Origin: an uncultured Candidatus Saccharibacteria bacterium
GTDB lineage: Bacteria > Patescibacteriota > UBA1384 > XYA2-FULL-43-10 > 1-14-0-10-43-13
Reading direction: 5' to 3'
Length of the DNA: 64,000 nt
Assembly: GCA_964543385.1 (NCBI GenBank)
Contig: CAZIYE010000002.1
Location: forward strand, 34 to 64,033
In this document: piece after piece, positions 2,508 to 53,119 of the stretch
How positions within the stretch are numbered: position 1 is the stretch's first letter
Layout: each line of letters opens with the position of its first letter
Position numbers and translations under genes: made by a program
The notes under the pieces: generated by a model
The model's input: the letters and a program-made list of their open reading frames with translations, nothing else
What the model was told of the DNA's origin: nothing
Databases searched by the model: none

Positions 2508-2833
2508 CCCTCCCTTAATACCTCTCTTAATGTTTTGTTATTGAAAATTTGTCTCTCAAATTCATCCATCCAACAGTCGAGCAGAAACTCAAATTCCGTT
2601 AAATGCGCTTGGAGTTCTGAGTCGGAAAGGCTGGTTGCAACATCACCGAGTATCTTTCTCGCCCTGGCTAATTTATTTTCTGCTTTATCAAAATCAAAGA
2701 TATTTTCGAGGGCTGATTCAATCGAGTTGTCTTTGTGTTCTGAAAAATTGACTGCTGGCTCTTTGACTACTGGATAATTAGTCACAAATTGAGTTCTTGC
2801 AATTGGATTTAGAAGTTGTAGTTGACCGGACAT
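2504..2833 (-). CDS. hypothetical protein (109 aa) adjacent to the recombinase; possible accessory/regulatory factor
   Basis: ORF with SD AGGAGG (complement of 2841-2846) and a 40-bp palindrome immediately upstream; no family recognised. Confidence 0.55.
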   Translation of the reverse strand: MSGQLQLLNPIARTQFVTNYPVVKEPAVNFSEHKDNSIESALENIFDFDKAENKLARARKILGDVATSLSDSELQAHLTEFEFLLDCWMDEFERQIFNNKTLREVLREG

Positions 2834-2848
2834 TGAACACCCTCCTAT

Positions 2849-2888
2849 CTATGACTATATCCATAGTTTACTATGGATATAGTCATAG
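2849..2888. promoter_or_regulatory. near-perfect 40-bp palindrome (CTATGACTATATCCATAG-tta-CTATGGATATAGTCATAG) directly upstream of the 109-aa gene
   Basis: 18-bp arms are exact reverse complements. Sits between the SD of the 2504-2833 gene and the end of the 2974-3771 gene. Candidate operator or recombination site. Confidence 0.6.
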
Positions 2889-2973
2889 TGTCAAGAGAAA
2901 TGGTCGATAGTTTATCAATAAAATAGCCAGTCCTAGAGTACAAATATAGGTGTTCAAATATACGCCAATTTAA

Positions 2974-3771
2974 CTACGCTTTTTCCCAAACATCACCGCC
3001 AGATTCATTCGATTTGAGGCTCTCTAGTAAGGCGAACTGAATCGTAAAATCAGCATCTGGGTACTCATCGGCTCTGAGTCTTCGAGTATACCTTTTGGCA
3101 TAAATTAGTAGGTACATCGAATGACAAACAAAAAGTAGAGTCGGGAATTCATCCTCTATGTTATCCTCCCAGCCATTGGAATAGTACAGATCAAAATATC
3201 TTTTAATTTTATTACGGACTAAGGCGAAAGAAGAATATCTCTCAATTACTTCTAATAGGTAATACATTGTCACACTTTTGTTACTTGCTCGCTTTGCAAA
3301 AAGAAGTTCGGGCTTAATCTTGGCCTCCGTCAGGAAACAATAATCCGAATATGGCTCAGCCAATTCTGTTTTGGTTATAACTGAAGAATTCTCCGCTTCC
3401 ATATTTTTATTTAAAAAAGCCAGGCTAAGATCAGCAAGCAAAAGGGCATCGGTAATATGACCAGATGATCCAGACCCTGCTTCTGTTGTTATCTTAGGGA
3501 AGTACTTAGGGGTGATGAGATATTTTTTCGACAAATACGGAAGACTGTTAGGAGCTAGGTAATAGATAGATGGCCTTGTTCTTTCGACATAGCCGTTTGA
3601 CCAGATTCTTTTTAGATATTCATTTTCTGTTAGGTCTTTAAGCCAGCTGTTTATTCTTCTATGATCTTTATGTTTTAGGAATGATTGTATCTGTATTCTG
3701 TTTAGGAATTTGAATTTATATATTAGAGTTAGGATTTCTTGTTGTTTAGTTGTTATTGTTTGATTTGTCAT
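2974..3771 (-). CDS. replication-relaxation family-like winged-HTH protein (plasmid/ICE-type)
   Basis: N-terminus TTKQQEILTLIYKFKFLNRIQIQSFL matches the Replic_Relax pattern (LTxxQxxIL..IY.FRFL...QI..L); size 265 aa. Confidence 0.5.
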   Translation of the reverse strand: MTNQTITTKQQEILTLIYKFKFLNRIQIQSFLKHKDHRRINSWLKDLTENEYLKRIWSNGYVERTRPSIYYLAPNSLPYLSKKYLITPKYFPKITTEAGSGSSGHITDALLLADLSLAFLNKNMEAENSSVITKTELAEPYSDYCFLTEAKIKPELLFAKRASNKSVTMYYLLEVIERYSSFALVRNKIKRYFDLYYSNGWEDNIEDEFPTLLFVCHSMYLLIYAKRYTRRLRADEYPDADFTIQFALLESLKSNESGGDVWEKA

Positions 3772-3821
3772 GTTTTTTTGATTGATTATTTTTAGGACGA
3801 GTATTATTTATTTTTTCCCTA

Positions 3822-3854
3822 ACCTACCTAACCATATATGTGTATAGGGTAGGT
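3822..3854. repeat. hairpin (ACCTACC ... GGTAGGT) with 19-nt AT-rich loop, flanked by CCTAACC repeats
   Basis: 7-bp perfect stem seen in sequence; sits in the non-coding stretch upstream of the Replic_Relax-like gene. Confidence 0.4.
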
Positions 3855-3903
3855 GCTAAATATTTTCAAATTTAGCTTCAAAAACCCATATTTTTTGCCA
3901 CAG

Positions 3904-3929
3904 ATGACTGGGACAATTGACTGGGACAA
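3904..3929. repeat. two tandem 13-bp direct repeats (aTGACTGGGACAA / tTGACTGGGACAA); iteron- or operator-like
   Basis: Adjacent copies identical in 12 of 13 nt, ~135 bp upstream of the Replic_Relax-like gene start. Confidence 0.5.
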
Positions 3930-4232
3930 AACACTGGCCATCTAATACATTGTATAACACAAAATATGAAGGCCTCCAAGCCCAGAATGAGTTATTATGA
4001 TATCTCTCTGAAACAGACTGAAAAATGCAGTTTTATTAAGCTGAAAAATTTCTCAGCTAATTCTTAGTTCTTACTATAGTATTGGTGTAGTTTTTAAAAG
4101 AGACTTTGTTATTTTGAAGAACTAGGGCAAAAATTAACTACATATCCAATTTTTGATATTATCTGTAAATACTGCTTAAGGGATTGTCTAGATAGTGTGG
4201 AATTTATGGATTTATTAGAGACCGATATTGTT

Positions 4233-5180
4233 TTAGGTACGGACATTTTGCACTTTTAGCCTGAGGACTTGATTCGGTGTTTTGCCGTTCAGTCCGCAGT
4301 GTTTTAAATCATTGTAATACATATTCCAAAGCTTTGCTTGGTATTTTAATTCCTCCTCTGTTTTGTATCTAATCTTCTCATAAAAACTCTCCTGATCAGA
4401 TCGATGACTTCTCTCAACGCAACCGTTTTGAGCTGGTTTGCCTGGGTCAATCAAGTAATGAGCGATATCTAATCTCTCGCACTCAATATCTAGCGGATGA
4501 AGGTTTGGGTTAAATGGATCTTTGCTCTTAAGATAGCCGGTGTATCTGTTTGTGAAGATGCTGCCATTGTCAGTCTTAATTGCTTTAATCCGGTACGGAA
4601 ACCTTTGAATTACCTCGTTTAGGAAGTTCAGAGCATCAACATTGGCTTGCTGGTCATAGATCTTTAGGTAGCGCCATCTGGAGGCGCAGTCTATGGCAGT
4701 GAACTGGTAATACCTCTTCTCGTTGATCTTATCTGGCACGTATTTGACATCGATCTCAATTAGTTCACCGGGCAGGAGTAGTGTCTTTGGCTTCTGTGGA
4801 TACTGCTTCCTTGTGCGGTATTTCCGAGTCAGGCCGTCTGTCTTTAGGATCTTGCCAATAGTTCTCTCGTGGAGAAAGATGCCTTCGTCCGCCAGATCCC
4901 ACTTGATCTTTAGAGCACACTCGTCGTTCATCTCGTGGCGCAGCTCCAGCACCCGTTCTTTGATTCTGATTGGCGTTTCGTTGGGCTGAGACCTTGGTCT
5001 GGTTGAGTGGTTTTCAAGGCCGGCCAATCCATCCTCTCGGTATTGTTTTAACCAATACTTAATGGCTCTTTCTGAGAAAGGACAGACCAAGGCAAGGTCT
5101 TTAATCTTCATCCTTTTTTCCAAGACAGGAGTAATCCATCTTAGTTTTTCTTCTTGTGTCGAATTGGGCATTATCTTCAT
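4233..5180 (-). CDS. IS481-family DDE transposase (HTH + integrase-core/rve domain)
   Basis: N-terminal HTH and HSTRPRSQP motif typical of IS481; DDE core with IKTDNGSIF ... NGCVERSHRS. Confidence 0.85.
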   Translation of the reverse strand: MKIMPNSTQEEKLRWITPVLEKRMKIKDLALVCPFSERAIKYWLKQYREDGLAGLENHSTRPRSQPNETPIRIKERVLELRHEMNDECALKIKWDLADEGIFLHERTIGKILKTDGLTRKYRTRKQYPQKPKTLLLPGELIEIDVKYVPDKINEKRYYQFTAIDCASRWRYLKIYDQQANVDALNFLNEVIQRFPYRIKAIKTDNGSIFTNRYTGYLKSKDPFNPNLHPLDIECERLDIAHYLIDPGKPAQNGCVERSHRSDQESFYEKIRYKTEEELKYQAKLWNMYYNDLKHCGLNGKTPNQVLRLKVQNVRT

Positions 5181-5262: not shown

Positions 5263-5295
5263 ATAAACAGTTGAAAAATTATCTTTGTGAGGGCC

Positions 5296-8200
5296 ATGAT
5301 TAAAAAAAGCAGTTACCTTAAAATTTGCTTCGTCATATTTCTAATTTTGGGAATTTCTTTTCCACCTGTTTCAAGAATTGCTAAAGCGAGTAATCCAACT
5401 TACTATGTTAGTGTTATCAATGGACAACTGAAATACCGTCTTGATAATTGGCCTGACGGAAGTAACGGCACTATTCCAAATCCGAGTGATTTAAACCAGT
5501 TATTCTTTGACCTGAACAATGACAAGAGTATAGTTCTTGATGCTGGCACATATTCTGGAACGTTGCTAGATGCCACAGACGGTATTGATATTGGGCGATC
5601 CGGACAACACATTCGCTCTGCTGTCAGTACTGATCCTGATTATGCAAATCGATTAGGCGAGGTAATCATCGATGGGGCAGGCATGAATGATGATGTTTTT
5701 GTTCTAAATGCCTCCAATAATATCTCCGGCATCACTATTCGGGGAGCTGATGGGGGAAAGAGAAACTTGGTTATCTCTAGTGGGACAGCAATTATCAATG
5801 ACATGATTTTGTCGGGCGGTGATTCCGGTTTTCTTTTTTCCGGTTCTAGTAATGTGACATTAAATCGTGTAAAAGTGAGTAACGTTAGCAGTTATATCGG
5901 CGATGTCAACGGAGCTTCGGCAAACACTACTTTTAATTATGGCCAATTTACCGACAATGCCAGTCCGATCAGAGTTTTTAATGGCAATTTGACAGTTAAT
6001 AATTCAACCCTTGCCGGCACAAAGAACGAAGCGATTTATATAGCTAATAACAATGGCCAGCAAGTCATGGTAAATAACAGCATTATTACAGCATCCAGTA
6101 CTGATAACGCCAATAAAAATGCAATTTTAAATAGCTCCTCAAATGCGAGTTGCACGGTAAACAATACTCTCATCCACTCAAATCCGATGAATGGGAATTA
6201 CTTAACTAGCGGCTGCACCTTAAACAATGCGACGACTGATGAAGCTGCTGGTTTCATTTCGCCAAAGAGGCAGGGAATGGTTTCGATTGTGATTGACGAC
6301 GCTGCTAGCAAAGACTGGTTCGGCACGATGGCCGACCTAGCTGAAGAGAGAAATTTCCGGCTTACTTGGGCCGTCGACACAAGATACATGTCAATTCATG
6401 AATACTGGGGTAGTGCTATCGATTTTGCAAACCGCGGCCATGAAATTGCTTCCCACTCCAGCTCTCATTCTTATCTGACAGAGTTAAGAGGTATTAATAT
6501 TCAGTACATTGGGACCGGTGCTGCGGCGACCTTGTCGATCGATGCTGCAACAAAAACCCTAACAACCTCTGTGGCTGACAAGCCATCCGATAACCTTTCT
6601 ATCAACTTAAACAATTACACACTTCATGGTCTAGCCAATTTTATTGCTAGTTCTAAGGGTGGTTCGGCCTACGTGGGCACAATTGCGTCAAGTAACAACA
6701 ATGAAGTTCCTGCCAGCATTTTAAGCACAGTTTCAAATCAAAGCATCAAAGAATCCATTTATATTGCCAATTTAAATGCTGATGCATACTACAGTTATGA
6801 AATACAAGGGTCAAAAACAGCAATCGAAACACAGATCGGCAATGGGTATGTGGTAAAATCTTTACACTATCCTTTCTGGCAAAGCAACTCTAACGTCAGA
6901 GACGCAGTCTCATCTGCCGGATATATTGGCGCAAGAGGCTTTGATGGTACTCGCTTGATTTCCGATATTGCCGCCTTTGAAACATACGGAATTCAAGTCG
7001 GAAACCTTTTTGGAGCTTTAAACACTAATCCAAACGAGACCCAAATAAAAGGAAGAGTTCATGCCTTGGCGCAATATCTTAATCATGTCGGTGGATTTAT
7101 CACGCTTGTTGCGCACAATAGCTTAATGGAGGGCGACTATACTCAACAGGAGTGGATCTGGGTGATGGACGCGCTAAAGGAAAGCGGTATTCAAGTTTTA
7201 CCATACGGCGAAGCAATAGAAGGGATAATTCAAGATGCAGAGTCTACCAGTGGAAGTGACGGGAGTCTTCATTATCTTAGAAGTCAATTGCACCTAGGAG
7301 ATCAATCGGATTATAGTCTGAGTCCTTTGTCGGTTGGAATAGATGCTGGTTCTAATCTTAGCCTAACAGCAGACTTTCTCGGGAATCCAGTTTATGGCTC
7401 CCCGGACCTTGGCGCTTTTGAATTTCAACCTAATTATCTCATTGGCGATGATCAAATTGACATAACTGCCGGCGCTAAAATCTATGCTGATGGCAAGTTT
7501 CGCAATCTTGGAACTAGCTCTGGAAATATCGCTGACTTAGTTGTCAAACCAGAGGGTGGCAATTTCAGTACTTATGGACAAAATGAAACTAGACCCGTCT
7601 GGCTTGAAATTGAGAATATTGTTTGGTCAAATACCGGCACCCGACATAAGCAATGGGTGGAAAACTCTGATTTCCCTGGTCTTACAAATACTTTGCATGT
7701 TGTTGGTGATTTGTTACCGAGTAAATTATATAATGTTAAAGTAGATAGCGTGCTCGGGCAGAATATTACGGGTGATGCATGTACTTCTGGTGTTTGCCGA
7801 TCTGACTCAAATGGGCAAATAACCTTCACCTATACAGGCACTTATTCTGCACACACCTTTGATATCGAAGAGGGTGATAATTTTGGACCTCAAATTGTGA
7901 GTGTCACCGCTGAAAACCAGGATGGTTATTATTATGCTGGCGACACTCTCAATATTCTAGTCGAGTTCTCTGAGAACGTAGCTGTTGCTGGGATTCCTCG
8001 ACTGCAGATGCGTACTAATAATGGAGATAAATATGCAAATTATTATTCTGGTAGCAACTCTTCTGTATTAGTATTCAATTATTTAGTCGAGATTGGCGAC
8101 CGGACTGATGATCTAGACTATTCTAATGTTGATTCTTTGGATCTTAATTCTGGAACAATCCGAGATTCTGTTGGTAATGATGCGGTTTTGTTATTGCCGC

Positions 8201-8925
8201 TTCCTGGTCAGCAATACTCGTTGGGCTTTAACAAGACTATTATTATTGATCAGGAGCAGCCTGTCGTTACAGATGTGACTTCTATCTCATCAAATGGCAC
8301 ATATAAGGTGGGTCAAGCCATTATTATTCGACTTATTGCTTCTGAGACGGTTATAGTGTCCGGAAAACCGAAATTGCAGCTTGATACTAATAACGGTGAC
8401 CGCTTTGCTATCTATAGCCAAGGTTCGGGTTCTCCAAATATTGACTTTTCTTTTGAAGTCGACGTTAACGATTCAACAGAAAGATTAAACTATGTTGATA
8501 TAAATTCCCTGGGTATGAATGGCGGCTCGATTGTTGATTTAGCAGGAAATCCTCTAGTTGCAATTTTGCCATCGCCATCCGGCCCCAATTCCCTTGCTCA
8601 TTATGCAAAAATTTTTATAGCGAAAACCACTAATGATTTTAACTCTCAAGGTACTCAAGATGATGGCCAGAGCATTTCCTCAATTAATTCTGAAAAAATA
8701 GTCACTCCCAAAACAATCGATGACAATTTAGAGGTAGCGGAAAATGAAAATACTGAACTAGCTCAAAAAGATACAGATAGAAGTAATGGTCAAAAAGAGT
8801 CAGCAATAAACGAGGTTAATGCTAAAAAAACACCTTTTAATACCATCGCACTTATTATCATATTGGGTATTGCTATTTCAGCTATTAGCTTTAGCGCTTT
8901 ATCTAAGTTAAAACCCAGAAAATAA
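5296..8925 (+). CDS. large secreted/cell-surface protein (~1,210 aa): signal peptide, right-handed beta-helix repeats, NodB/CE4 polysaccharide-deacetylase domain, two tandem ~110-aa Ig-like repeats, C-terminal TM anchor with basic tail
   Basis: N-terminal MIKKSSYLKICFVIFLILGISF signal. N/S/T-rich beta-helix-like repeats (NNSTLAGT, NNSIITAS). CE4 motifs VIDDA ... HEIASHSSSH. Two paralogous repeats (PQIVSVTAENQDGYYYAGDTLNI... / PVVTDVTSISSNGTYKVGQAIII...). C-terminal IALIIILGIAISAISFSALSKLKPRK. The ORF track start (GTG 5287) was moved to the ATG at 5296. Confidence 0.8.
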   Translation: MIKKSSYLKICFVIFLILGISFPPVSRIAKASNPTYYVSVINGQLKYRLDNWPDGSNGTIPNPSDLNQLFFDLNNDKSIVLDAGTYSGTLLDATDGIDIGRSGQHIRSAVSTDPDYANRLGEVIIDGAGMNDDVFVLNASNNISGITIRGADGGKRNLVISSGTAIINDMILSGGDSGFLFSGSSNVTLNRVKVSNVSSYIGDVNGASANTTFNYGQFTDNASPIRVFNGNLTVNNSTLAGTKNEAIYIANNNGQQVMVNNSIITASSTDNANKNAILNSSSNASCTVNNTLIHSNPMNGNYLTSGCTLNNATTDEAAGFISPKRQGMVSIVIDDAASKDWFGTMADLAEERNFRLTWAVDTRYMSIHEYWGSAIDFANRGHEIASHSSSHSYLTELRGINIQYIGTGAAATLSIDAATKTLTTSVADKPSDNLSINLNNYTLHGLANFIASSKGGSAYVGTIASSNNNEVPASILSTVSNQSIKESIYIANLNADAYYSYEIQGSKTAIETQIGNGYVVKSLHYPFWQSNSNVRDAVSSAGYIGARGFDGTRLISDIAAFETYGIQVGNLFGALNTNPNETQIKGRVHALAQYLNHVGGFITLVAHNSLMEGDYTQQEWIWVMDALKESGIQVLPYGEAIEGIIQDAESTSGSDGSLHYLRSQLHLGDQSDYSLSPLSVGIDAGSNLSLTADFLGNPVYGSPDLGAFEFQPNYLIGDDQIDITAGAKIYADGKFRNLGTSSGNIADLVVKPEGGNFSTYGQNETRPVWLEIENIVWSNTGTRHKQWVENSDFPGLTNTLHVVGDLLPSKLYNVKVDSVLGQNITGDACTSGVCRSDSNGQITFTYTGTYSAHTFDIEEGDNFGPQIVSVTAENQDGYYYAGDTLNILVEFSENVAVAGIPRLQMRTNNGDKYANYYSGSNSSVLVFNYLVEIGDRTDDLDYSNVDSLDLNSGTIRDSVGNDAVLLLPLPGQQYSLGFNKTIIIDQEQPVVTDVTSISSNGTYKVGQAIIIRLIASETVIVSGKPKLQLDTNNGDRFAIYSQGSGSPNIDFSFEVDVNDSTERLNYVDINSLGMNGGSIVDLAGNPLVAILPSPSGPNSLAHYAKIFIAKTTNDFNSQGTQDDGQSISSINSEKIVTPKTIDDNLEVAENENTELAQKDTDRSNGQKESAINEVNAKKTPFNTIALIIILGIAISAISFSALSKLKPRK

Positions 8926-33742: not shown

Positions 33743-34492
33743 ATGGAAGAAAAAGATTTACCAATCGAAAACAGGCTTAAGGACTTGCGAAAAGAAAAGC
33801 ACCTTAGTCAAGAGGAATTAGCCGATGCAATCGGTATTTCTCGTCAGTCAATAATCTCACTTGAACAAGGCAGATCAATGCCTTCTGTTCCGTTGGCGAT
33901 TTCCCTATGTCGGTATTTTGATGCCGCATTTGAAGAACTTTTCGACTTCGAGCGCGAAGTTGATAGAGAAATCAACAATGCAATTCACAATGGTAGTATT
34001 AATATAAAAGTAATTAATGATCCAGAAGTCGGATCGAGAAAGGACAATGCTATGGTAGAATTAGAGCCATGGAGACCTTTTAGAGAAACAGTATCCTTGA
34101 GAGACGCAATGGATCGGCTTTTAGAGGATAGTTTTATTACTCCTGCCAAAATGGGGGGTATGCCTCGAATTGATGTCAAAGATAAGAAAGACTCAATTGT
34201 AGTTAAAGCCGAGTTGCCAGGAATCAAGGAAGAGGACATCAATGTCGAAATCCTCGATAATGTCATGACAATCTCAGGTGAGAAAAAAGAGGAAAAAGAA
34301 GAGAAAGAAGAGGACAAAGGCTATTATTACAAAGAAAGCCATACTGGAAAATTCTCTCGAAGTTTCACCCTGCCATCTGAAGTAATGACCGAAAGGGCCG
34401 TTGCTGATATGAAAAATGGTATTCTCACAATCACTGTTCCAAAAATAGAGCCAAAGAAAGCTCAAAAGATAAGCATCGCCCCAAAGAGATAA
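33743..34492 (+). CDS. XRE-family HTH domain fused to a complete Hsp20/alpha-crystallin small heat-shock protein
   Basis: Residues ~8-65 LRKEKHLSQEELADAIGISRQSIISLEQGRSMPSVPLAISLCRYFD (HTH_3). Then WRPFRE ... PRIDVKDKKDSIVVKAELPGIKEEDINVEILDNVMTISGEKKEE ... GKFSRSFTLP ... GILTITVPK (alpha-crystallin domain) in one uninterrupted frame. Confidence 0.75.
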   Translation: MEEKDLPIENRLKDLRKEKHLSQEELADAIGISRQSIISLEQGRSMPSVPLAISLCRYFDAAFEELFDFEREVDREINNAIHNGSINIKVINDPEVGSRKDNAMVELEPWRPFRETVSLRDAMDRLLEDSFITPAKMGGMPRIDVKDKKDSIVVKAELPGIKEEDINVEILDNVMTISGEKKEEKEEKEEDKGYYYKESHTGKFSRSFTLPSEVMTERAVADMKNGILTITVPKIEPKKAQKISIAPKR

Positions 34493-35538: not shown

Positions 35539-35979
35539 ATGAAGATCAAAGCAAAAAAATTAAATAAAGATGCCATTGTTCCTGTCCATTTATTACATGG
35601 TGACGCAGGGTTGGACTTACATTCCGTAATAGATGTAACTTTAAACTCAGGAGAGAGGCTTGCAGTGCCTACAGGGCTAGCATTTGAGCTGCCGGAGGGC
35701 TATGTATCATTGATCTGGGATAAGAGCGGATTAGCTCTGCGAAATGGTATAAAAACGATGGGCGGGGTGATAGAATATACTTATCGGGGTGAATATAAAA
35801 TAATATTGCTAAACACGACCAATACGCCGTTTCATATTAAAAAGGGTGATAAAATCGCCCAGATGCTGGTGCAGCCAATAATGTCAGTTGATGTTGAAGA
35901 AGTCGAAGAATTAAGCGAGACAGAGCGCGGACTACATGGATTTGGCTCTGCTGATGAGAAGCTAAAGAATGGAAAATAA
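35539..35979 (+). CDS. dut: dUTP diphosphatase (canonical trimeric dUTPase)
   Basis: GLDL, PTGLAFELPEGY, motif III GGVIEYTYRGEYKIILLNT, C-terminal GFGS motif V. Confidence 0.85.
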   Translation: MKIKAKKLNKDAIVPVHLLHGDAGLDLHSVIDVTLNSGERLAVPTGLAFELPEGYVSLIWDKSGLALRNGIKTMGGVIEYTYRGEYKIILLNTTNTPFHIKKGDKIAQMLVQPIMSVDVEEVEELSETERGLHGFGSADEKLKNGK

Positions 35980-36652
35980 AACCGGAAAATTCATTGTCAT
36001 AGATGGTTCTGACGGGTCAGGTAAAAAGACCCAGTCTGATTTATTGATTGAAAGCTTGAAAAAAGCAGGGCATGAGACCGCTTATTATGATTTTCCTGAT
36101 TATGATTCATTCTTTGGTAAGATGGTAGGCCGATACCTCAATGGAGAATTCGGCGAAGCAGATCAGGTCAGCCCCTATCTTGGCTCACTTTTATATGCAG
36201 GGGATCGCTGGCAAGCAAGTAAACAAATAGAAAAAGATCTTTCAGAAGGCAAAATTGTCATTTCAAACCGATACACGCAGTCAAATATGGGCCATCAGGC
36301 TGCAAAAATAGACAATATTGATGAAAAAGAAAAGTATTTGAAATGGCTTGAAGAGCTAGAGTTTAATATTTATAAAATACCAAAACCAGACTTAGTTTTA
36401 TTTTTACATGTCCCAGTAGAGATAAGTCAGAATCTGTTTGTCGGAAAGGGAAAGCGCAAATATACAAAGGCAGTCAAAGATATCCACGAAGGGAATGTCG
36501 ATTTTATGAAGAGGTCGGTCAATGAATATCTCCGTTTAACAGAAAAATATCCAGAGTGGCGAAGAATTGATTGTACAGAGGCAGAAACCCTACTGTCAAA
36601 GGAAGAGATTGCTGATAGAATTTATTCGATGATAACGAAAGAAGTTTTATGA
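35969..36652 (+). CDS. tmk: thymidylate (dTMP) kinase
   Basis: FIVIDGSDGSGKKTQ P-loop, DRW/lid region; 227 aa. Confidence 0.85.
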   Translation: MENKTGKFIVIDGSDGSGKKTQSDLLIESLKKAGHETAYYDFPDYDSFFGKMVGRYLNGEFGEADQVSPYLGSLLYAGDRWQASKQIEKDLSEGKIVISNRYTQSNMGHQAAKIDNIDEKEKYLKWLEELEFNIYKIPKPDLVLFLHVPVEISQNLFVGKGKRKYTKAVKDIHEGNVDFMKRSVNEYLRLTEKYPEWRRIDCTEAETLLSKEEIADRIYSMITKEVL

Positions 36653-36797: not shown

Positions 36798-38039
36798 ATG
36801 AATTTGAAAGATCAAGACAAAGAAATATTTGAAGTAATCAATTGTGAAAAAGAGCGCCAAGTCGAAGGTTTAGAGATGATTGCTTCTGAAAATTATGTCT
36901 CAGAAGCTGTCCTCGAAGCAACTGGTTCAATCCTCACTAACAAGTATGCTGAGGGCTATCCATACTCTAGATATTATGGTGGCTGTGAGTGCGTTGACAA
37001 AGGAGAGTCATTAGCAATTGAGCGATTAAAGAAATTATTTGGCTGCAAATTTGCCAATGTTCAGCCACACTGTGGATCAAGTGCAAATATGGCAGCTTAT
37101 GCTGCTATCCTTGCGCCAGGTGATAAATTGCTCGGACAAAGTTTAGATGCTGGAGGACATTTGACTCATGGAGCCAAAGTTTCTTTTTCTGGGAAATGGT
37201 TTGAGTCATACAGCTATGGACTTGATTCAGAAACTGGACAGTTAAATTATGAAGAGATCAGAAAAATTGCACTTGAAGTAAGGCCAAAAGTTATTATGTG
37301 TGGGTACTCAGCATATCCAAGAAAAATAGATTTCAAGAAATTTAGAGAGATTGCTGACGAAGTAGACGCATATTTGATTGCAGATATAGCCCACATAGCC
37401 GGATTAGTTGCTACTGGCTATCATGATTCTCCTATTGGTATCGCTGATATAGTTACATCAACAACTCATAAAACTCTAAGAGGTCCACGTTCCGGCATCA
37501 TTATGACAAATAATGAAGAATTGGCAAAGAAGATTGACAAAGCGGTTTTCCCGATGCTTCAGGGTGGTCCACTCGAGCATGTTATTGCCGCTAAGGCAGT
37601 TGCATTTGGCGAAGCGCTAAAACCTGAATTTAAGATATATATAAGCAATGTTTTAGATAATATGCAGACTTTTGCCAAGACTTTAATGTCTTTTGATTTT
37701 GACTTGGTCACTGGCGGGACAGAGAATCATCTAATATTAGTCGATCTTAGAAGCAAGAGCATAACCGGTAAGGAATTCGAGTATGCTCTACACGAAGCAG
37801 GGATTACAGTAAATAAAAATGCTATTCCCAATGACCCAAATCCGCCAAAAGTTACTTCCGGCATCAGAGTTGGGACAGCCGCATTAACAACCCGCGGAAT
37901 GGGTGTTAAAGAAATGCAGCGGATTGCTGAAATGTTTAATATCGTTGCTGAAAATATCAGCGATGAGCAAAAACTTGCCGAAATCAAACAAGAGATTAAA
38001 GAAATGACCGAAAATTTCCCAGTACCGGGCATTAAATAA
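36798..38039 (+). CDS. glyA: serine hydroxymethyltransferase
   Basis: EMIASENYVS, PLP-lysine region TSTTHKTLRGPRSG; 413 aa. Confidence 0.9.
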   Translation: MNLKDQDKEIFEVINCEKERQVEGLEMIASENYVSEAVLEATGSILTNKYAEGYPYSRYYGGCECVDKGESLAIERLKKLFGCKFANVQPHCGSSANMAAYAAILAPGDKLLGQSLDAGGHLTHGAKVSFSGKWFESYSYGLDSETGQLNYEEIRKIALEVRPKVIMCGYSAYPRKIDFKKFREIADEVDAYLIADIAHIAGLVATGYHDSPIGIADIVTSTTHKTLRGPRSGIIMTNNEELAKKIDKAVFPMLQGGPLEHVIAAKAVAFGEALKPEFKIYISNVLDNMQTFAKTLMSFDFDLVTGGTENHLILVDLRSKSITGKEFEYALHEAGITVNKNAIPNDPNPPKVTSGIRVGTAALTTRGMGVKEMQRIAEMFNIVAENISDEQKLAEIKQEIKEMTENFPVPGIK

Positions 38040-38048
38040 GGATTAGCG

Positions 38049-38357
38049 ATGGATTTTTCAGAATTACAAGAAAAAATTATTGCCAATGCAGAGCGATATT
38101 CAAAAAAACATGATATTTTAATTAATGATGATTATGCAATTCATAAATTATATGAAGAAGTTGGCGAGTTTTCTCAAGCCTGGCTTATTCACAATCGCCA
38201 ATGCAGAGAATCGAAATATGTTGAAAAAGAGATGTCCAAGAAGATGATCTCGCACGAATTGGCTGATATAATCGGAATTGCGGTAGTGATAGCAAATTTG
38301 CAGAAAATAAACTTAGAAAAAGCAATTGACCAAAAATGGATTAATAGAGAAAAATAA
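38049..38357 (+). CDS. MazG-like single-domain nucleoside-triphosphate pyrophosphohydrolase
   Basis: LYEEVGEFSQAW ... ELADIIGIAVVIANL EExxE/ELAD motifs of the all-alpha NTP-PPase fold; 102 aa. Confidence 0.6.
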   Translation: MDFSELQEKIIANAERYSKKHDILINDDYAIHKLYEEVGEFSQAWLIHNRQCRESKYVEKEMSKKMISHELADIIGIAVVIANLQKINLEKAIDQKWINREK

Positions 38358-38358
38358 T

Positions 38359-38913
38359 ATGATATTAGGAGTAACTGGAACAATTGGCGCTGGCAAAGAT
38401 TTGATTGCAAGATATCTGGAAAGTAAAGATTTTCAGCATATTTCTACTGCCGATATCCTTAGAGAAGAAGTCTCTCAAAAAGGCTTATCCTTAGAACGTG
38501 AATCATTACGCACTTTTTCAAACGATTTAAAGAAAGAAAAAGGTGGCGATTATCTAGCAAGGGAGGCTGTTGCTAGAATGAAAAGTGATAATATTATAAT
38601 ATCCGCAATAAGAGCAGTAGAAGAAGTCGATTACCTAAAAAAACTAGATAATTTTTATCTTATTTTTATTGATGCTCCTGTTGAATTACGATATGAAAGA
38701 ATCAGAAAAAGATCACGGATAGGCGAGAAGGAAATAGCCTTTGAAGAGTTTAAAAGAAAAGAAGACTTAGAAATGTTTGGCCAAAGCTCACAAAGACTAG
38801 ATTATTGCAGGGAGAAGGCCGATTTCATAATTAGTAATACTAGCTCCATAGATCAATTAAATATAGAAATTGACAATCTGCTAATCAAGATTAGGGAAAG
38901 TGGAAATAAATGA
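38359..38913 (+). CDS. P-loop (deoxy)nucleoside-monophosphate kinase-like protein with GxxxxGKD Walker A (T4 gp1 dNMP-kinase-like / CoaE-like fold)
   Basis: MILGVTGTIGAGKDLIARYL. The GKD (not GKS/T) P-loop is shared with T4 gene-1 dNMP kinase (GVKRSGKDTTADFI). 184 aa. Start moved to ATG 38359 after the mazG-like stop. Confidence 0.5.
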   Translation: MILGVTGTIGAGKDLIARYLESKDFQHISTADILREEVSQKGLSLERESLRTFSNDLKKEKGGDYLAREAVARMKSDNIIISAIRAVEEVDYLKKLDNFYLIFIDAPVELRYERIRKRSRIGEKEIAFEEFKRKEDLEMFGQSSQRLDYCREKADFIISNTSSIDQLNIEIDNLLIKIRESGNK

Positions 38914-39740
38914 CACAGTTTGATCATGTATACCAAGATGCAATAGCCAGAGTTCTGAATGAAGGAGTGGAAGATTTTAATGTTCGTACTGGCATGAAAG
39001 TAAAGGCAGTGCCGGGACTTACTTTTCAGTGTGATTTTGGTTTTCCGATATTAACATTACGCAAAATCCCCATAAAACTATTTATAGCTGAGATGGTTTG
39101 GTTTCTTTCTGGTAGCAAGGATCCAGATGATTTCTTAAGTAAATATACGAAAATATGGGATGATTTCCGAGAAGAAGATGGTACTATTGCTGCGGCTTAT
39201 GGTCATCGCTGGAGACACCATTTCGGGCGTGATCAGATAAAAGACTTAATTTCCCTTCTCCAGAATGAGCCATCTTCGCGCCACGGTGTGGTCGTAACAT
39301 GGGATCCGGCAGACGACGGTCTTGGCAGCGGCACGAAAAAGAAAAACGTACCTTGTCCATACACATTTACCGTAAATATTATCGGTGATAGACTTCATTT
39401 GCATTCAATAGTTCGCTCAAATGATATGATGCTTGGCTGCCCTCACGATACAGCCGGCTTCTCATTGCTCCAATATTTATTAGCAGCAAAACTTGGCGTA
39501 AGACCAGGCGTTTATACACATTCAGTAAGCAATGCTCATATATATGAAAATCATTATGACCAGGCATGGGAGATCGTGAATAGAGAAAATTCTCACCCCC
39601 CAATCGTTTTTGAGCCCAGGCCAGATTATCTAGATAGAGCAATGGCAGGGGACGAAAGCGTAATAAATGAAATTTACGAAACATTAACAGAACAATACAA
39701 ACCTAGATCAGCAGTTAAAAAAATGAAGATAGCATTATGA
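38910..39740 (+). CDS. ThyA-family pyrimidine-nucleotide C5 (hydroxy)methyltransferase; cytosine-type active site (Asp at the uracil-specifying Asn position); predicted dCMP methylase or hydroxymethylase rather than canonical thymidylate synthase
   Basis: Aligns by eye to E. coli ThyA: R21 (VRTGMKV), E58 (IAEMVWFL), Y94 (AAAYGHRWR), C146 (NVPCPYTF; His147 replaced by Pro), R166-S167-(N)-D169 (VRSND), H207/Y209 (NAHIY). The GLPFNIASY block reads GCPHDTAGF, so E. coli N177 is Asp, as in T4 gp42 (RSND...FGFRND). Confidence 0.7.
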   Translation: MTQFDHVYQDAIARVLNEGVEDFNVRTGMKVKAVPGLTFQCDFGFPILTLRKIPIKLFIAEMVWFLSGSKDPDDFLSKYTKIWDDFREEDGTIAAAYGHRWRHHFGRDQIKDLISLLQNEPSSRHGVVVTWDPADDGLGSGTKKKNVPCPYTFTVNIIGDRLHLHSIVRSNDMMLGCPHDTAGFSLLQYLLAAKLGVRPGVYTHSVSNAHIYENHYDQAWEIVNRENSHPPIVFEPRPDYLDRAMAGDESVINEIYETLTEQYKPRSAVKKMKIAL

Positions 39741-40264
39741 AAACAATAATAATCATGGCTCAGTCACTTGATGGTGTGATAGCTTATGACGCTGACCACG
39801 CCGCGAACTGGACATCGAAAGAAGATAAGCAGTTTTTTATATCTGAAACCAAGAAAGCCGGAGTAATAATTTTTGGCAGAAATACCTATAAAACTTTTGG
39901 CGACAAACCTTTGCAAGGCAGACTAAACCTTGTGATGACCCTGGATGAAAGTGAAAAGCAATTTGAAAAGCCAGGTCTTGTTGAATATGCGGTTAAAAAA
40001 GAGCCATCGGAAATATTAAAAATGTTAAAAAAGAGAGGCTTTAAAAAAGTTTTTGTCGGCGGAGGAAGTATGATTAATTCACTTTTCCTTGATAAGGGGT
40101 TAATCGATGAACTTTGGATAACCATTGAGCCAAAAATTTTTGGAAAAGGATTAAAAATACTCACTGATCAAAAAAGAGATATTAATCTTGTTTTGAAAAC
40201 AGTTAAAAAAGCAAACCAATCAGTTTTATTAAAGTACGGAGTGAATTATGGGAATTCTAACTAG
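39737..40264 (+). CDS. folA: dihydrofolate reductase
   Basis: IIIMAQSLDGVIA ... IFGRNTYKTFGDKPLQGRLNLVMT ... VFVGGGSMINSLFL parallel E. coli FolA blocks ([37 protein letters not shown]). Confidence 0.75.
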   Translation: MKTIIIMAQSLDGVIAYDADHAANWTSKEDKQFFISETKKAGVIIFGRNTYKTFGDKPLQGRLNLVMTLDESEKQFEKPGLVEYAVKKEPSEILKMLKKRGFKKVFVGGGSMINSLFLDKGLIDELWITIEPKIFGKGLKILTDQKRDINLVLKTVKKANQSVLLKYGVNYGNSN

Positions 40265-40964
40265 AAAAGAAATTTTGACTGCTATTGCTGATGGGGAGCT
40301 TAGTTTTGAGCCAGGCTTAGACCAATTTCAGCTACAACCAGCTGCAATCGACGTTCGGGTTGGTATGAACTTTTTCATACCAAAAATTTGGTCATTTGGA
40401 GAAGAGGGAAGAACGGGCTTGAATACTGATCATCTTGATAACGAAAAAAAGAATGAGTTTTTAGATAGTCTACATTTAAAACATGGGCAGACCTTTGAAT
40501 TGCTCCCAGGGGAATTTATCTTAATTTCGACTCTAGAAAAGATTTCTATGAAGTCAGGCAGACTTGTCTCTATCCTTTATCCTAGGAGTTCCACGACCAG
40601 AAGAGGTATATCTATTGAATCTGGCGTTATAGATCCTCATTACGAAGGCTCTCTTATGATCCCTGTTTTTAATATGACTAGAACGCAAAAAATCAAGATA
40701 TATCCCGGTGAAAGAATTGCCCAGCTTGTTTTTTCTACTACCGAGAGTGTTCTTTCTAAGGAAGAGTCCTTGAATCATGGACTTGCAAAACCTAAATATC
40801 AGGGAGTCCAAGGCTATCAGTTGGATTATAAGTTCGATCCGCATGATGAAATCAATTTAGTCAAAAATGGCCAATTGGATAAATTAAAAAAGAATCACCT
40901 AATTTCATTAGACGAAAGGGTTGAAAGTGGCGACGAAAAAAATCAACTACCCTTATCTGCCTAA
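40248..40964 (+). CDS. dCTP-deaminase/dUTPase-superfamily protein (Dcd-like jelly-roll); catalytic Glu of true dCTP deaminases apparently absent, so possibly a dCTP/dUTP pyrophosphatase
   Basis: AIDVRVG ... LPGEFILISTLE ... YPRSSTTRRG ... IDPHYEGSLMIPVFNMT ... IYPGERIAQLVF. Dcd S111/R115 conserved, but the VLEF Glu (E. coli E138) aligns to Pro/Val. Confidence 0.6.
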   Translation: MGILTRKEILTAIADGELSFEPGLDQFQLQPAAIDVRVGMNFFIPKIWSFGEEGRTGLNTDHLDNEKKNEFLDSLHLKHGQTFELLPGEFILISTLEKISMKSGRLVSILYPRSSTTRRGISIESGVIDPHYEGSLMIPVFNMTRTQKIKIYPGERIAQLVFSTTESVLSKEESLNHGLAKPKYQGVQGYQLDYKFDPHDEINLVKNGQLDKLKKNHLISLDERVESGDEKNQLPLSA

Positions 40965-41808
40965 AGGTAGAGAAATCAAGTTTGTCGGTTCTGAAAATGA
41001 ATATATATTAGCGGCTAAAGAGGCTGCTATGAAGGCTGGCTGCAGAAAACAGCCAACAGGAGCAGTCTTGGTCAAAGACGGCAAAATAATAATGACGGCT
41101 ACCAATGCAAGTACTACGGTCAGCGTCTGCCCCAGAGTATTAAAAGGAAGCAAGACTGGAACCGACTATCATTTTTGCAAGGAAGTTTGTAATCAAGACG
41201 GGCACTCTGAATATAGCGCAGTACAAAAATGTCTAGAGAAGGGGATAGACATAAAAGACGCTGATATTTATCTCTGGGGACATTGGTGGTGCTGCAAACC
41301 ATGTTGGGACAAGATGATCGAAGGAGAAATCAAAAATGTTTATCTGGAGAAAAATGCAGATGAAAAATTCATGTTTTCCGCAACTATCGGCAAAATCTAT
41401 ATTTCAGGTGCTCTCACCATACAGCCAAAGGGTAAAAATTTAAGAAAATCATATGAAAATTTAGCAGCAGTTTGCTCAAACTTTTGTAGCAATGTTTATG
41501 TGCCACATCTTAATAGCACGGATCCGATCAAGGATCCCAATGAAGTGCCGTCTATTGTTTGGAAAACTGATCACAGGGAAGTAGCTTCTTCTGATATCGT
41601 AGTCGCATATGTTGGCGCACCATCTCTAGGGACTGGCGCAGAGCTTGAGATCGCCAGAATGGCGGCTTCAGATATAGTAGTTTGGTGGTATAAAGGTGAA
41701 ATGGTTAGTAGAATGTGTCTTGGAAATCCAAATGTTAAATATAAGTTGGAAGTTATCAATGACCAAGATTTAGCCCATCAGCTTAAGTTAGTCCTAAGGA
41801 ATTATTAG
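40921..41808 (+). CDS. fusion: dCMP/cytidine-deaminase zinc-binding domain + nucleoside 2-deoxyribosyltransferase-like (NDT/Rcl/MilB-family) domain
   Basis: N-terminal HSEYSAVQKC ... WWCCKPCWDKM (H-x-E ... PC-x-x-C deaminase zinc site). C-terminal IYISGAL ... IVVAYVGAPSLGTGAELEIARMAASDIVVWW resembles the NDT-family D-x-G-T-x-x-E motif. TTG start at 40921 overlaps the dcd-like gene; true start uncertain. Confidence 0.65.
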   Translation: MKVATKKINYPYLPKGREIKFVGSENEYILAAKEAAMKAGCRKQPTGAVLVKDGKIIMTATNASTTVSVCPRVLKGSKTGTDYHFCKEVCNQDGHSEYSAVQKCLEKGIDIKDADIYLWGHWWCCKPCWDKMIEGEIKNVYLEKNADEKFMFSATIGKIYISGALTIQPKGKNLRKSYENLAAVCSNFCSNVYVPHLNSTDPIKDPNEVPSIVWKTDHREVASSDIVVAYVGAPSLGTGAELEIARMAASDIVVWWYKGEMVSRMCLGNPNVKYKLEVINDQDLAHQLKLVLRNY

Positions 41809-51796: not shown

Positions 51797-53119
51797 TTAG
51801 CTAAATGTCAATTCTGTACGATAGCCCCTTTTAAAATCTTCGTAGGTCATTTCATTCTTGCCTTCAGGCTTGACTCGATCTAGCGCATAGGTCAAATCCT
51901 TCTCAAAATGACCGGCAATCAATTGCACTTTTTTGTCTTTTACAACTGCGAATGCCTTTGGCCAGTCGCTAAATGCTCTAATTTTTCTGTCTACTATCTC
52001 TTTGGGTGTATCTGCGTCGACAAATCCATCTTCTTTTTTGAAAAGTCGATTGTATGTTGCCTTGCTATCATCTTGGGGTGTTGGTTCTAGATCCTTGGTC
52101 AGATAATAAGGGATAGAATTAACCAGAAGCGAAGCACCAATTTCTGCTAAGTAAGGTTTTAAAATAGTTGTTGTCTCTGTGCCACGAAGCTGGACACTAG
52201 CCTGTGAAATGATGTCACCAGCATCCATTTTTTCGCCAGTCAATATTAGAGATACTCCGGTAACCTTATCACCGTCTAAAATTGTTTGTTGAATCGGTGA
52301 TGGTCCTCTGTGCTGAGGCAAAAGAGACGGATGGATATTTATTATGCCAAATTCTGGAATATCAATTATATCTTTACTAATGATCTGTCCAAAATCGGCC
52401 ATTATCCCAAGCTTCGGTTTCAGTGCTTTAATTTTTTCAACAATGTCAGGAGATTTAATATTGTCGGTTTTGATTATTGGTAGATTATATCTGTTTGCAA
52501 TCTCCTCAATTGGATTTTTCTTTTTATTATGTTTTCTGGAAACAGCCTGGGAATTGCCGGTTATGACTGCCCTGATCTTATATTGGGGATCAATAGCTAA
52601 AATTTCTAGAGCATCGATGCCGAGAGTTCCAGTACCTATAAATATAACGTCTATCTCTCGGATATGGTCAATTAGTAGAGTTGAATTTAAATGGTCAATT
52701 TCATGTTGAAGTACTCTCGAGAATAGGCCAGTTGCCTCGATAGTCAGATTATTTCCTAATCGATCTTTGCCAGTCACAGTAACGTCGCTAGGTCTCTTAA
52801 CAATTATCTCTAAGCCAGGAAAAGACAGACACCCCTCCACCATATTTCTAGATGATTTCGATCTTTTAGTTATTTTTGGGTTGCAAATAACTGTCAGGGG
52901 AAAGGATTTAAATCTTGAGTCCTCTTCGGCCTTGTATTCGCAAACTATTACTTTTTTTGAACTTTTGACTTGAGGAGCGGCAAGGCCAACGCCATTAGCA
53001 GCTCTCATGGTATCAATCATATCATCTATGAAGGCTTGAAATTCCATACCAAAATCGCTGACCTCTTCGGTCTTGGCTCTAAGAATTGGATTGCTAGTTT
53101 TTATTATTTCTAATTTCAT
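51797..53119 (-). CDS. fused peptide deformylase (N-terminal) and methionyl-tRNA formyltransferase (C-terminal), single 440-aa ORF
   Basis: Def motifs GVGLAAPQ, EGCLSFP, QHEIDHL in residues ~40-140; then Fmt N-domain with HPSLLPQHRGPSPIQ and the Fmt C-terminal beta-barrel region, no stop between. Confidence 0.85.
   Translation of the reverse strand: MKLEIIKTSNPILRAKTEEVSDFGMEFQAFIDDMIDTMRAANGVGLAAPQVKSSKKVIVCEYKAEEDSRFKSFPLTVICNPKITKRSKSSRNMVEGCLSFPGLEIIVKRPSDVTVTGKDRLGNNLTIEATGLFSRVLQHEIDHLNSTLLIDHIREIDVIFIGTGTLGIDALEILAIDPQYKIRAVITGNSQAVSRKHNKKKNPIEEIANRYNLPIIKTDNIKSPDIVEKIKALKPKLGIMADFGQIISKDIIDIPEFGIINIHPSLLPQHRGPSPIQQTILDGDKVTGVSLILTGEKMDAGDIISQASVQLRGTETTTILKPYLAEIGASLLVNSIPYYLTKDLEPTPQDDSKATYNRLFKKEDGFVDADTPKEIVDRKIRAFSDWPKAFAVVKDKKVQLIAGHFEKDLTYALDRVKPEGKNEMTYEDFKRGYRTELTFS

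Follow-up and report, generated by a model that had tools for sequence, protein, structure and literature searches.

The thymidylate synthase homologue and its fold

The DNA analysed here, called the window, is a stretch of 64,000 nucleotides from contig CAZIYE010000002.1 (assembly GCA_964543385.1) of an uncultured Candidatus Saccharibacteria bacterium, which belongs to the Patescibacteria or Candidate Phyla Radiation (CPR). An open reading frame (ORF) with an ATG start at 38910–39740 of the + strand encodes a thymidylate synthase (TS) homologue of 276 amino acids, which matches the Pfam family PF00303 (Thymidylat_synt) at 1.3e-53. This gene of the ultra-small Patescibacteria is labelled thymidylate synthase everywhere, yet it has the active-site signature of the dCMP-methylating enzyme of phage Xp12. 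Among the NCBIfam models the protein clears only the loose cut-off of TIGR03284 and stays far under the equivalog cut-offs of PRK01827. An AlphaFold (AF2) model based on an alignment of 31 family members has a mean pLDDT of 93.7, and a Foldseek comparison of this model with the PDB returns full-length canonical thymidylate synthases as the top matches, with TM scores of 0.8–0.84. The ORF is confirmed to encode a full-length protein of the ThyA fold with an active site of the Asp177 type (E. coli ThyA numbering), and we predict it to be a dCMP C5-methyltransferase, that is, a 5-methyl-dCMP synthase.

Active-site residues

Residues were placed by HMMER alignments to solved thymidylate synthases and by MAFFT alignments with E. 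coli ThyA. The conserved residues are Arg26 (Arg21 in E. coli), Glu61 (Glu58), Trp83 (Trp80), Tyr97 (Tyr94), Arg124 (Arg126'), Cys149 (Cys146), and His210 and Tyr212 (His207 and Tyr209). The loop Arg169-Ser170-Asn171-Asp172, encoded at 39414–39425 (+), corresponds to Arg166-Ser167-x-Asp169 of E. coli and keeps the phosphate-binding Arg, the Ser that specifies deoxyribose and the folate-binding Asp; Asp172 is invariant in the family alignment. At the C-terminus (39696–39737, +) a TS-type tail of the form Tyr263-x-Pro265 ... Lys-Ile-Ala-Leu-COOH is found, homologous to Tyr-Asp-Pro ... Lys-Ala-Pro-Val-Ala-Ile of E. coli. Its pattern in the family is Y-x-P ... K ... hydrophobic-Ala-hydrophobic-COOH, with Tyr263 and Pro265 invariant and Ile274 nearly so. 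The fold and the residues of canonical ThyA chemistry (the catalytic Cys, Glu58, Tyr94, Arg21/Arg166/Arg126', Asp169 and His207/Tyr209) are thus all present, but the Asn that reads uracil at position 177 is replaced by Asp180.

The codon of Asp180, the residue at the pyrimidine specificity position, lies at 39447–39449 (+) and is directly preceded by that of His179 (Phe176). The segment Asn146-Val-Pro-Cys149-Pro150, encoded at 39345–39359 (+), places Asn at Leu143 and Pro at His147 on the two sides of the catalytic Cys and forms the KNVPCP motif common to the Xp12-type enzymes. The initial annotation had located the catalytic residues by eye, with Asp at Asn177 and Pro at His147; all of these placements hold in both alignments, and the shift that it feared in its own alignment is excluded. 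Further substitutions, absent from it, are Asn146 (Leu143), Phe86 (Trp83), His125 (Arg127) and His179 (Phe176).

Published rules connect several of these positions to function. Columns 177 and 147 are the best at telling apart TS homologues of phage contigs with modified cytosine and those of contigs without the modification (PMC8670742), and the same paper cites the change Asn177Asp in E. coli, or Asn229Asp in L. casei, as turning TS into a dCMP methylase. Asp or Glu at 143 marks hydroxymethylases (T4 gp42, MilA) and Asn at 169 the flavin-dependent 5-hydroxy-dCMP synthases (PMC13326640). Ala167 together with Lys126' is typical of the ribonucleotide-specific MilA/BcmA, and the C-terminal tail of TS closes over the folate, while T4 dCMP hydroxymethylase is without a tail (PMC5175136). 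By these rules three classes are rejected. A T4-type dCMP hydroxymethylase needs Asp or Glu at 143 and no tail, where Asn146 and a conserved tail are found. A flavin-dependent 5-hydroxy-dCMP synthase of the RB69 gp48 type needs Asn at 169 and is rejected because Asp169 is kept as Asp172. A CMP hydroxymethylase like MilA/BcmA needs Ala at 167 and Lys at 126', where Ser170 and Arg124 are found; retention of Ser167 and Arg126 indicates a deoxyribonucleotide as the predicted substrate. With Asn143 as in Xp12, and with Asp169, Ser167 and Arg126, the protein matches the dCMP methyltransferase class but none of the other three. Roles for Asn143 and His179 themselves can be suggested by analogy.

Conservation and distribution of the family

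Asp at position 177 is found in 119 of the 120 nearest homologues (61–86% identity) from a collection of 5.8 billion proteins, which carry the names of Falkow-, Uhr- and Kuenenbacteria, Parcubacteria and Patescibacteria. Scanning GTDB with a single genome for each species gave 501 loci that encode a relative, and the genome counts below are taken from the best 80 of these 501. Asp177 is present at 79 of the 80 and the motif N[VI]PCP at 77, in lineages that include Falkow-, Harrison-, Kuenen-, Magasanik-, Jackson-, Doudna-, Moran-, Shapiro-, Portnoy-, Uhr-, Nomura-, Davies- and Wildermuthbacteria and Paceibacteria. An alignment of 150 sequences was made from the nearest 50%-identity cluster representatives of at least 200 amino acids in a library of 1.84 billion proteins, together with reference and close-family sequences; Asp177 occurs in 128 of them, with a common co-varying set of W83F, R127Q/H, H147P and F176Y/H. 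Canonical 'REWWYRRCHQRSDLFNHY' enzymes appear only lower in the list of relatives. Because it is conserved in 119/120 and 79/80 relatives, Asp180 is real and no sequencing error, and an alignment artefact or a chance change is rejected on the same conservation. The gene belongs to the core genome of cellular Patescibacteria, and its family is very widespread.

Some database labels of these loci deserve caution. The Patescibacteria-type gene and operon are found on two short contigs binned as Ktedonobacterales (loci L059 and L089) and at many loci whose titles name an 'uncultured Gammaproteobacteria' or 'Saccharibacteria'; these MAG records have probably been mis-binned or given a generic wrong label.

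Relationship to the phage Xp12-type enzymes and other known systems

Among 50,697 phage records, the top match of the TS homologue is the protein of Pseudomonas phage ZQG1. This phage is a Bradleyvirinae relative of Xanthomonas phage Xp12, in whose DNA 5-methylcytosine (5mC) takes the place of cytosine. The pairwise scores are 166 bits for ZQG1 (35% identity), 157 bits for Xp12 (37%), 114 bits for E. coli ThyA (28%) and 45 bits for T4 gp42 (24%). Common to the window protein and the Xp12 type are the motifs AYGxRWRxHFGRDQ, WDPAxDGLG...KNVPCP and RPG..H...AH.YE.H, an insertion of 4–5 residues between the conserved Trp and the catalytic Cys (a spacing of 15–18, against 13 in canonical ThyA) and a spacing fixed at 11 from Tyr94 to the DQ pair. 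In a neighbour-joining tree, CPR proteins group with other sequences that have Asn143, Pro147 and Asp177, and canonical ThyA lies separately. The initial annotation had named a phylogeny of the ThyA superfamily as a check; this grouping has a bootstrap of only 60%. Because the deep support of the tree is weak, we rely on the pairwise scores, motifs and indels for this relationship.

The agreement with the deoxycytidylate C-methyltransferase (EC 2.1.1.54) of Xp12 and ZQG1 covers Asp177, Pro147 as the non-His residue at 147, the non-acidic Asn143 in KNVPCP, Asp169 and the insertion before the Cys. The identity of 35–37% is the best among characterised relatives, and the sequence is nearer to this type than to ThyA or gp42. 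The gene neighbourhood agrees as well: in Xp12 and ZQG1 the TS homologue lies beside a dCMP deaminase and a dihydrofolate reductase (DHFR), with a nucleotide pyrophosphohydrolase or a HAD hydrolase before it, and linked DHFR and dCMP deaminase genes are also found in the window. In contrast to the phage genes, the window gene is cellular and housekeeping, and the protein has a longer and more TS-like C-terminus. Its specificity loop reads RSND..LGCPHD where the phage proteins have RSSD..VGLPYD, with His rather than Tyr at 176; its accessory genes are not orthologous to those of the phages, and genes for a dCTP-deaminase-like (DCD-like) protein, dTMP kinase (Tmk), serine hydroxymethyltransferase (SHMT) and dUTPase are additional. 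In E. coli supplied with T4 dNMP kinase, 5-methyl-dC was made by the Xp12 homologue and by 5 of 7 metagenomic Asp177 homologues (bioRxiv 10.1101/2024.12.05.627091). These nearest characterised homologues lend support, at the level of sequence, to the dCMP-directed enzyme of the initial annotation.

With ThyA of E. coli and L. casei (EC 2.1.1.45) the window protein shares the fold, the dimer-type phosphate Arg, Cys, Glu58, Tyr94, Asp169, His207/Tyr209, the C-terminal tail and the adjacency to folA, whereas it differs in Asn177 to Asp, His147 to Pro, Leu143 to Asn, Trp83 to Phe, Arg127 to His and Phe176 to His. T4 gp42, the deoxycytidylate hydroxymethylase (EC 2.1.2.8) whose substrate is dCMP, has Asp in the same specificity column and the same RSND loop, as had been proposed at first and as the alignment bears out; unlike the window protein, it has Asp143 and no C-terminal tail. 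T4 gp42 also needs no DHFR, because it yields tetrahydrofolate (THF). The engineered Asn177Asp and Asn229Asp synthases carry the same single change, but they are laboratory mutants, whereas in the window protein the change arose naturally, is ancient and comes with several co-varying substitutions.

The viral relatives in IMG/VR that come closest (44–54% identity) likewise have a deaminase gene next to the TS homologue; one of these loci (L091) is clearly phage-like. Xp12-like contigs in the same collection show the arrangement pyrophosphatase/HAD-TS-deaminase-DHFR. As a separate observation, IMG/VR loci L143–L170, which match the CPR profile, have 'KD[IL]PCN' with Asp143 and Asn177, the signature expected of a dUMP hydroxymethylase.

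Operon and genomic context

The TS homologue is one of nine consecutive genes on the + strand, from a dUTPase to a dCMP deaminase, with overlapping or short junctions. A canonical trimeric dUTPase (35539–35979; Pfam dUTPase, 2.2e-29) opens the cluster and is followed by Tmk (35969–36652; Pfam, TIGR00041), by SHMT for methylene-THF regeneration (36798–38039; Pfam, 5.8e-158) and by a small MazG/PRA-PH-like NTP pyrophosphohydrolase (38049–38357; weak matches). The next gene (38326–38913, with a probable ATG start at 38359) encodes a P-loop nucleotide kinase that resembles phage dNMP kinases according to Pfam AAA_18/AAA_17, phrog_139 dNMP kinase (3.7e-15) and synteny. Its stop codon overlaps the start of the TS homologue. 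On the other side, the stop codon of the TS homologue overlaps the start codon of DHFR (ATGA). The DHFR gene (39737–40264; Pfam DHFR_1/RibD_C) had been recognised in the initial annotation and is real, with a full-length match to Thermotoga maritima DHFR at 7e-22. The run ends with the DCD-like protein without the catalytic Glu (40248–40964; Pfam and NCBIfam matches, alignment to M. tuberculosis DCD-DUT) and with the dCMP deaminase (40921–41808), for which domain matches show an HSE ... CxxC zinc site and an extra C-terminal domain. No internal + strand terminator was seen within the nine-gene run, for which the promoter and terminator scans were uninformative.

The window is a segment of a bacterial chromosome with a transfer-messenger RNA and nine tRNAs, and it also encodes SmpB, RNase Y, MraW, QueH, UvrB, TrmD, PriA, Lon, ThrRS and ribosomal protein L25. 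The operon lies between tRNA-Val and ThrRS with core genes around it, and the GC content of every operon gene is in line with that of the window. The operon is native and part of the core genome. A prophage or a recent phage island is rejected in view of the native GC content, the core flanks, the synteny across many lineages and the accessory genes, which are not phage-like.

Elsewhere in the window, a probable integrated mobile element is found at 870–5180 (−) beside tRNA genes at 110–864. It holds a large serine recombinase (870–2507), a Replic_Relax protein (2974–3771) and an rve-family integrase (4233–5180). It is followed at 5287–8925 (+) by an ORF of 1212 amino acids with a short polysaccharide-deacetylase match, the remainder being without a Pfam family. 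At 33743–34492 (+) an HTH_3 DNA-binding domain is fused with an Hsp20/alpha-crystallin domain, and one ORF of 440 amino acids at 51797–53119 (−) joins peptide deformylase and methionyl-tRNA formyltransferase (a Def-Fmt fusion).

Neighbouring genes across genomes

Synteny was counted by blastp against the window proteins. The dCMP deaminase is found at 67 of the 80 loci, the DCD-like protein at 63, DHFR at 49, Tmk at 40, the P-loop kinase at 26 and SHMT at 25. When only the 54 loci that extend 3 kb or more to either side are considered, the TS homologue has the dCMP deaminase at a distance of up to 3 kb in 49, the DCD-like protein in 43 and DHFR in 35. The deaminase is the most faithful neighbour and is adjacent even when divergently transcribed. 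The order TS-DHFR-DCD-deaminase-kinase-Tmk is repeated in differing core-gene contexts. Among Asp177-type relatives, fusions are observed of TS with dCMP deaminase, with a PRA-PH/MazG-like pyrophosphatase and with an HNH endonuclease (P0144, P0193 and P0143; P0193 is the PRA-PH-TS(D177) fusion). Of DHFR it is known that CPR folA from other Patescibacteria genomes complements E. coli ΔfolA (PMC11974145).

In phage metagenomes a deaminase and a TS occur together on 70% of cytosine-modified contigs against 6% of unmodified ones, and the TS-linked phage deaminases select 5-methylcytosine and are thought to yield thymidine nucleotides from 5-methyl-dC nucleotides (bioRxiv 10.1101/2024.12.05.627091). 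The deaminase linkage in CPR genomes mirrors this signature of 70% against 6%, and we propose the dCMP deaminase of the operon as a putative 5-methyl-dC nucleotide deaminase that would give thymine nucleotides. Its C-terminal part (about 41380–41808) has weak similarity to nucleoside 2-deoxyribosyltransferase, to the 5-hydroxymethyl-dUMP N-hydrolase DNPH1 and to MilB, with the motif SLGTGAELE; by length, this extra domain is feasible in a minority of deaminase orthologues (21 of 70).

The DCD-like protein clears the NCBIfam equivalog cut-off for dCTP deaminase. Alignment to the bifunctional M. tuberculosis enzyme reveals Pro at the position of the catalytic Glu (Glu138 in E. coli, Glu129 in M. 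tuberculosis), as in about 57 of 66 CPR DCD-like neighbours, while the Asp and Tyr of dUTPase motif III ('ID..Y') are retained. The protein is probably a dNTP pyrophosphatase and not a deaminase, which would make its annotation wrong everywhere; a possible role is the supply of dCMP from dCTP or the removal of 5-methyl-dCTP. Because the Glu is replaced by Pro, the classical supply of dUMP from dCTP through dUTP is probably absent, and we reject this neighbour as a proof of such a supply. Two proteins of the dUTPase superfamily are thus encoded in one cluster, the canonical dUTPase and the DCD-like protein.

Proposed route to thymidylate and alternative explanations

From the active-site residues, their conservation, the sequence relationships, the synteny and the fusions we infer the substrate, the product, the order of steps and a possible role as the sole route to thymidylate. 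The TS homologue is probably a folate-dependent dCMP C5-methyltransferase of the EC 2.1.1.54 type rather than a dUMP-specific TS, and it would feed a pathway from dCMP through 5-methyl-dCMP to dTMP. By the conserved chemistry of TS, Cys149 would attack C6 of dCMP. Asp180 would hydrogen-bond or protonate N3/N4 of the cytosine where Asn reads uracil, as is established for the N177D/N229D mutants, for T4 gp42 and for the Xp12-type enzymes. The carbon would come from methylene-THF, the tail would close the site, and hydride transfer would give 5-methyl-dCMP and dihydrofolate. The folate could then be recycled by the translationally coupled DHFR and by SHMT of the same operon.

Upstream of this reaction, dCTP may be hydrolysed to dCMP by the DCD-like protein without the Glu and/or by the MazG-like protein. 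The TS homologue would convert dCMP to 5-methyl-dCMP, and the dCMP deaminase would convert 5-methyl-dCMP to dTMP, possibly at the triphosphate level after the action of the neighbouring kinase. We propose this order (hydrolyse, methylate, deaminate, against the classical deaminate, hydrolyse, methylate) because a dCMP deaminase and a dTMP kinase accompany the gene in a conserved housekeeping operon. That thymidylate is made entirely without a dUMP-dependent synthase, by way of 5-methyl-dC nucleotides, we hold to have roughly even chances. In our literature search, the coverage of which is incomplete, no paper was found on an Asp-type ThyA of CPR bacteria or on this pathway in cells.

Several observations weigh against this proposal. 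The dUTPase at the head of the operon is a genuine enzyme that makes dUMP, and dUTPase, dCMP deaminase, TS, DHFR and Tmk would also suffice for the classical dUMP route. The CPR deaminase and pyrophosphatase are not close homologues of their phage counterparts. Asn143 fits neither the Leu nor the Asp/Glu side of the published rule, and its reading goes back solely to the Xp12 precedent; the His that the CPR family has at Phe176 beside the Asp is not a trait of the Xp12-type enzymes. The deep branches of the neighbour-joining tree are poorly supported, with the 60% falling at the split of the Asp clade from canonical ThyA.

The operon content leads directly to the simplest rival, an ordinary TS that uses dUMP, alone or together with dCMP, in spite of the Asp, and that receives dUMP classically from dCMP deaminase and dUTPase. 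The operon encodes dUTPase, dCMP deaminase, DHFR, SHMT and Tmk and with them the complete classical route, every residue of TS chemistry and the tail are retained, the solved structures nearest in fold are dUMP-specific, and the CPR-specific His179 beside Asp180 might retune recognition. In 1992 Hardy and Nalivaika, and likewise Liu and Santi, reportedly found that TS of E. coli and L. casei with the Asn177Asp-type change keeps some dUMP activity, and this residual activity would favour the rival as well. However, all characterised natural Asp enzymes use cytosine nucleotides (T4 gp42, MilA, Xp12, RB69 gp48 and the metagenomic ones), and Asn is otherwise invariant in dUMP enzymes. In addition, Asp is fixed in this family, which spans more than 500 species (119/120; 79/80), together with other Asp-type residues, and the dCTP-deaminase homologue next door has lost its catalytic Glu. 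We regard a dUMP-using or dual enzyme as unlikely. A hydroxymethylase like T4 gp42, making 5-hydroxymethyl-dCMP for DNA modification or for a small molecule while DHFR only reduces salvaged folate, would agree with Asp177 and the RSND loop and with a residue 143 that is not the bulky hydrophobic one said to keep water out; the MilB/DNPH1-superfamily domain of the window deaminase points the same way, as members of this superfamily hydrolyse hydroxymethylated pyrimidine nucleotides. Yet the identity to gp42 is only 24%, Asn143 is that of the methyl-forming Xp12 enzyme and not Asp or Glu, and the TS tail that gp42 does not have is conserved. Furthermore, DHFR is tightly coupled and this coupling is conserved, no glycosyl- or carbamoyl-transferase is found near the TS homologue at the loci examined, and the MilB-like domain is limited to a minority of orthologues. 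A hydroxymethylase is thus highly improbable. The preference of the initial annotation for a reductive methylase is supported in sequence terms by Asn143, the TS-type tail and the conserved synteny with DHFR.

The chemistry of a dCMP methylase could also serve a different end. In this alternative 5-methyl-dCMP would be phosphorylated by the dNMP kinase and go into bulk chromosomal 5mC, with thymidylate as a side product. A parallel set of genes makes up the phage 5mC module (NTP pyrophosphatase, Asp-type TS, dNMP kinase, deaminase and DHFR), and the kinase is coupled in translation with the TS homologue. The characterised phage deaminase acts on 5-methyl-dCTP (bioRxiv 10.1101/2024.12.05.627091), implying such a pool. 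On the other hand, Tmk in the operon suggests dTMP as an intermediate, the kinase is detected at only 26 of the 80 loci, a cellular genome would have to exclude dCTP completely, and the literature searched holds no report of bulk 5mC in Patescibacteria. We give this use of the methylase a slim chance. Its fullest form, drawn by analogy to the phages, in which Patescibacteria chromosomes would have 5mC for most or all cytosine while the operon supplies both dTMP and, through the dNMP kinase, 5-methyl-dCTP, is a long shot; if true, a wholesale non-canonical base would for the first time be found in cellular organisms.

Significance

To our knowledge, all cells are taken to make thymidylate by methylation of dUMP, through ThyA or ThyX, and we know of dCMP-methylating homologues solely from phages that replace cytosine by 5mC. 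If the proposed dCMP methylation is housekeeping in a large bacterial radiation, it would be a third cellular way to thymine nucleotides, in which dUMP is dispensable. The functional labels 'thymidylate synthase' and 'dCTP deaminase' would then be wrong for hundreds to thousands of Patescibacteria genes, and metabolic models of these symbionts, including their dependence on folate and DHFR, would have to be revised. How the phage 5mC pathways arose, and whether cellular DNA can be rich in 5mC, would also become directly testable questions.

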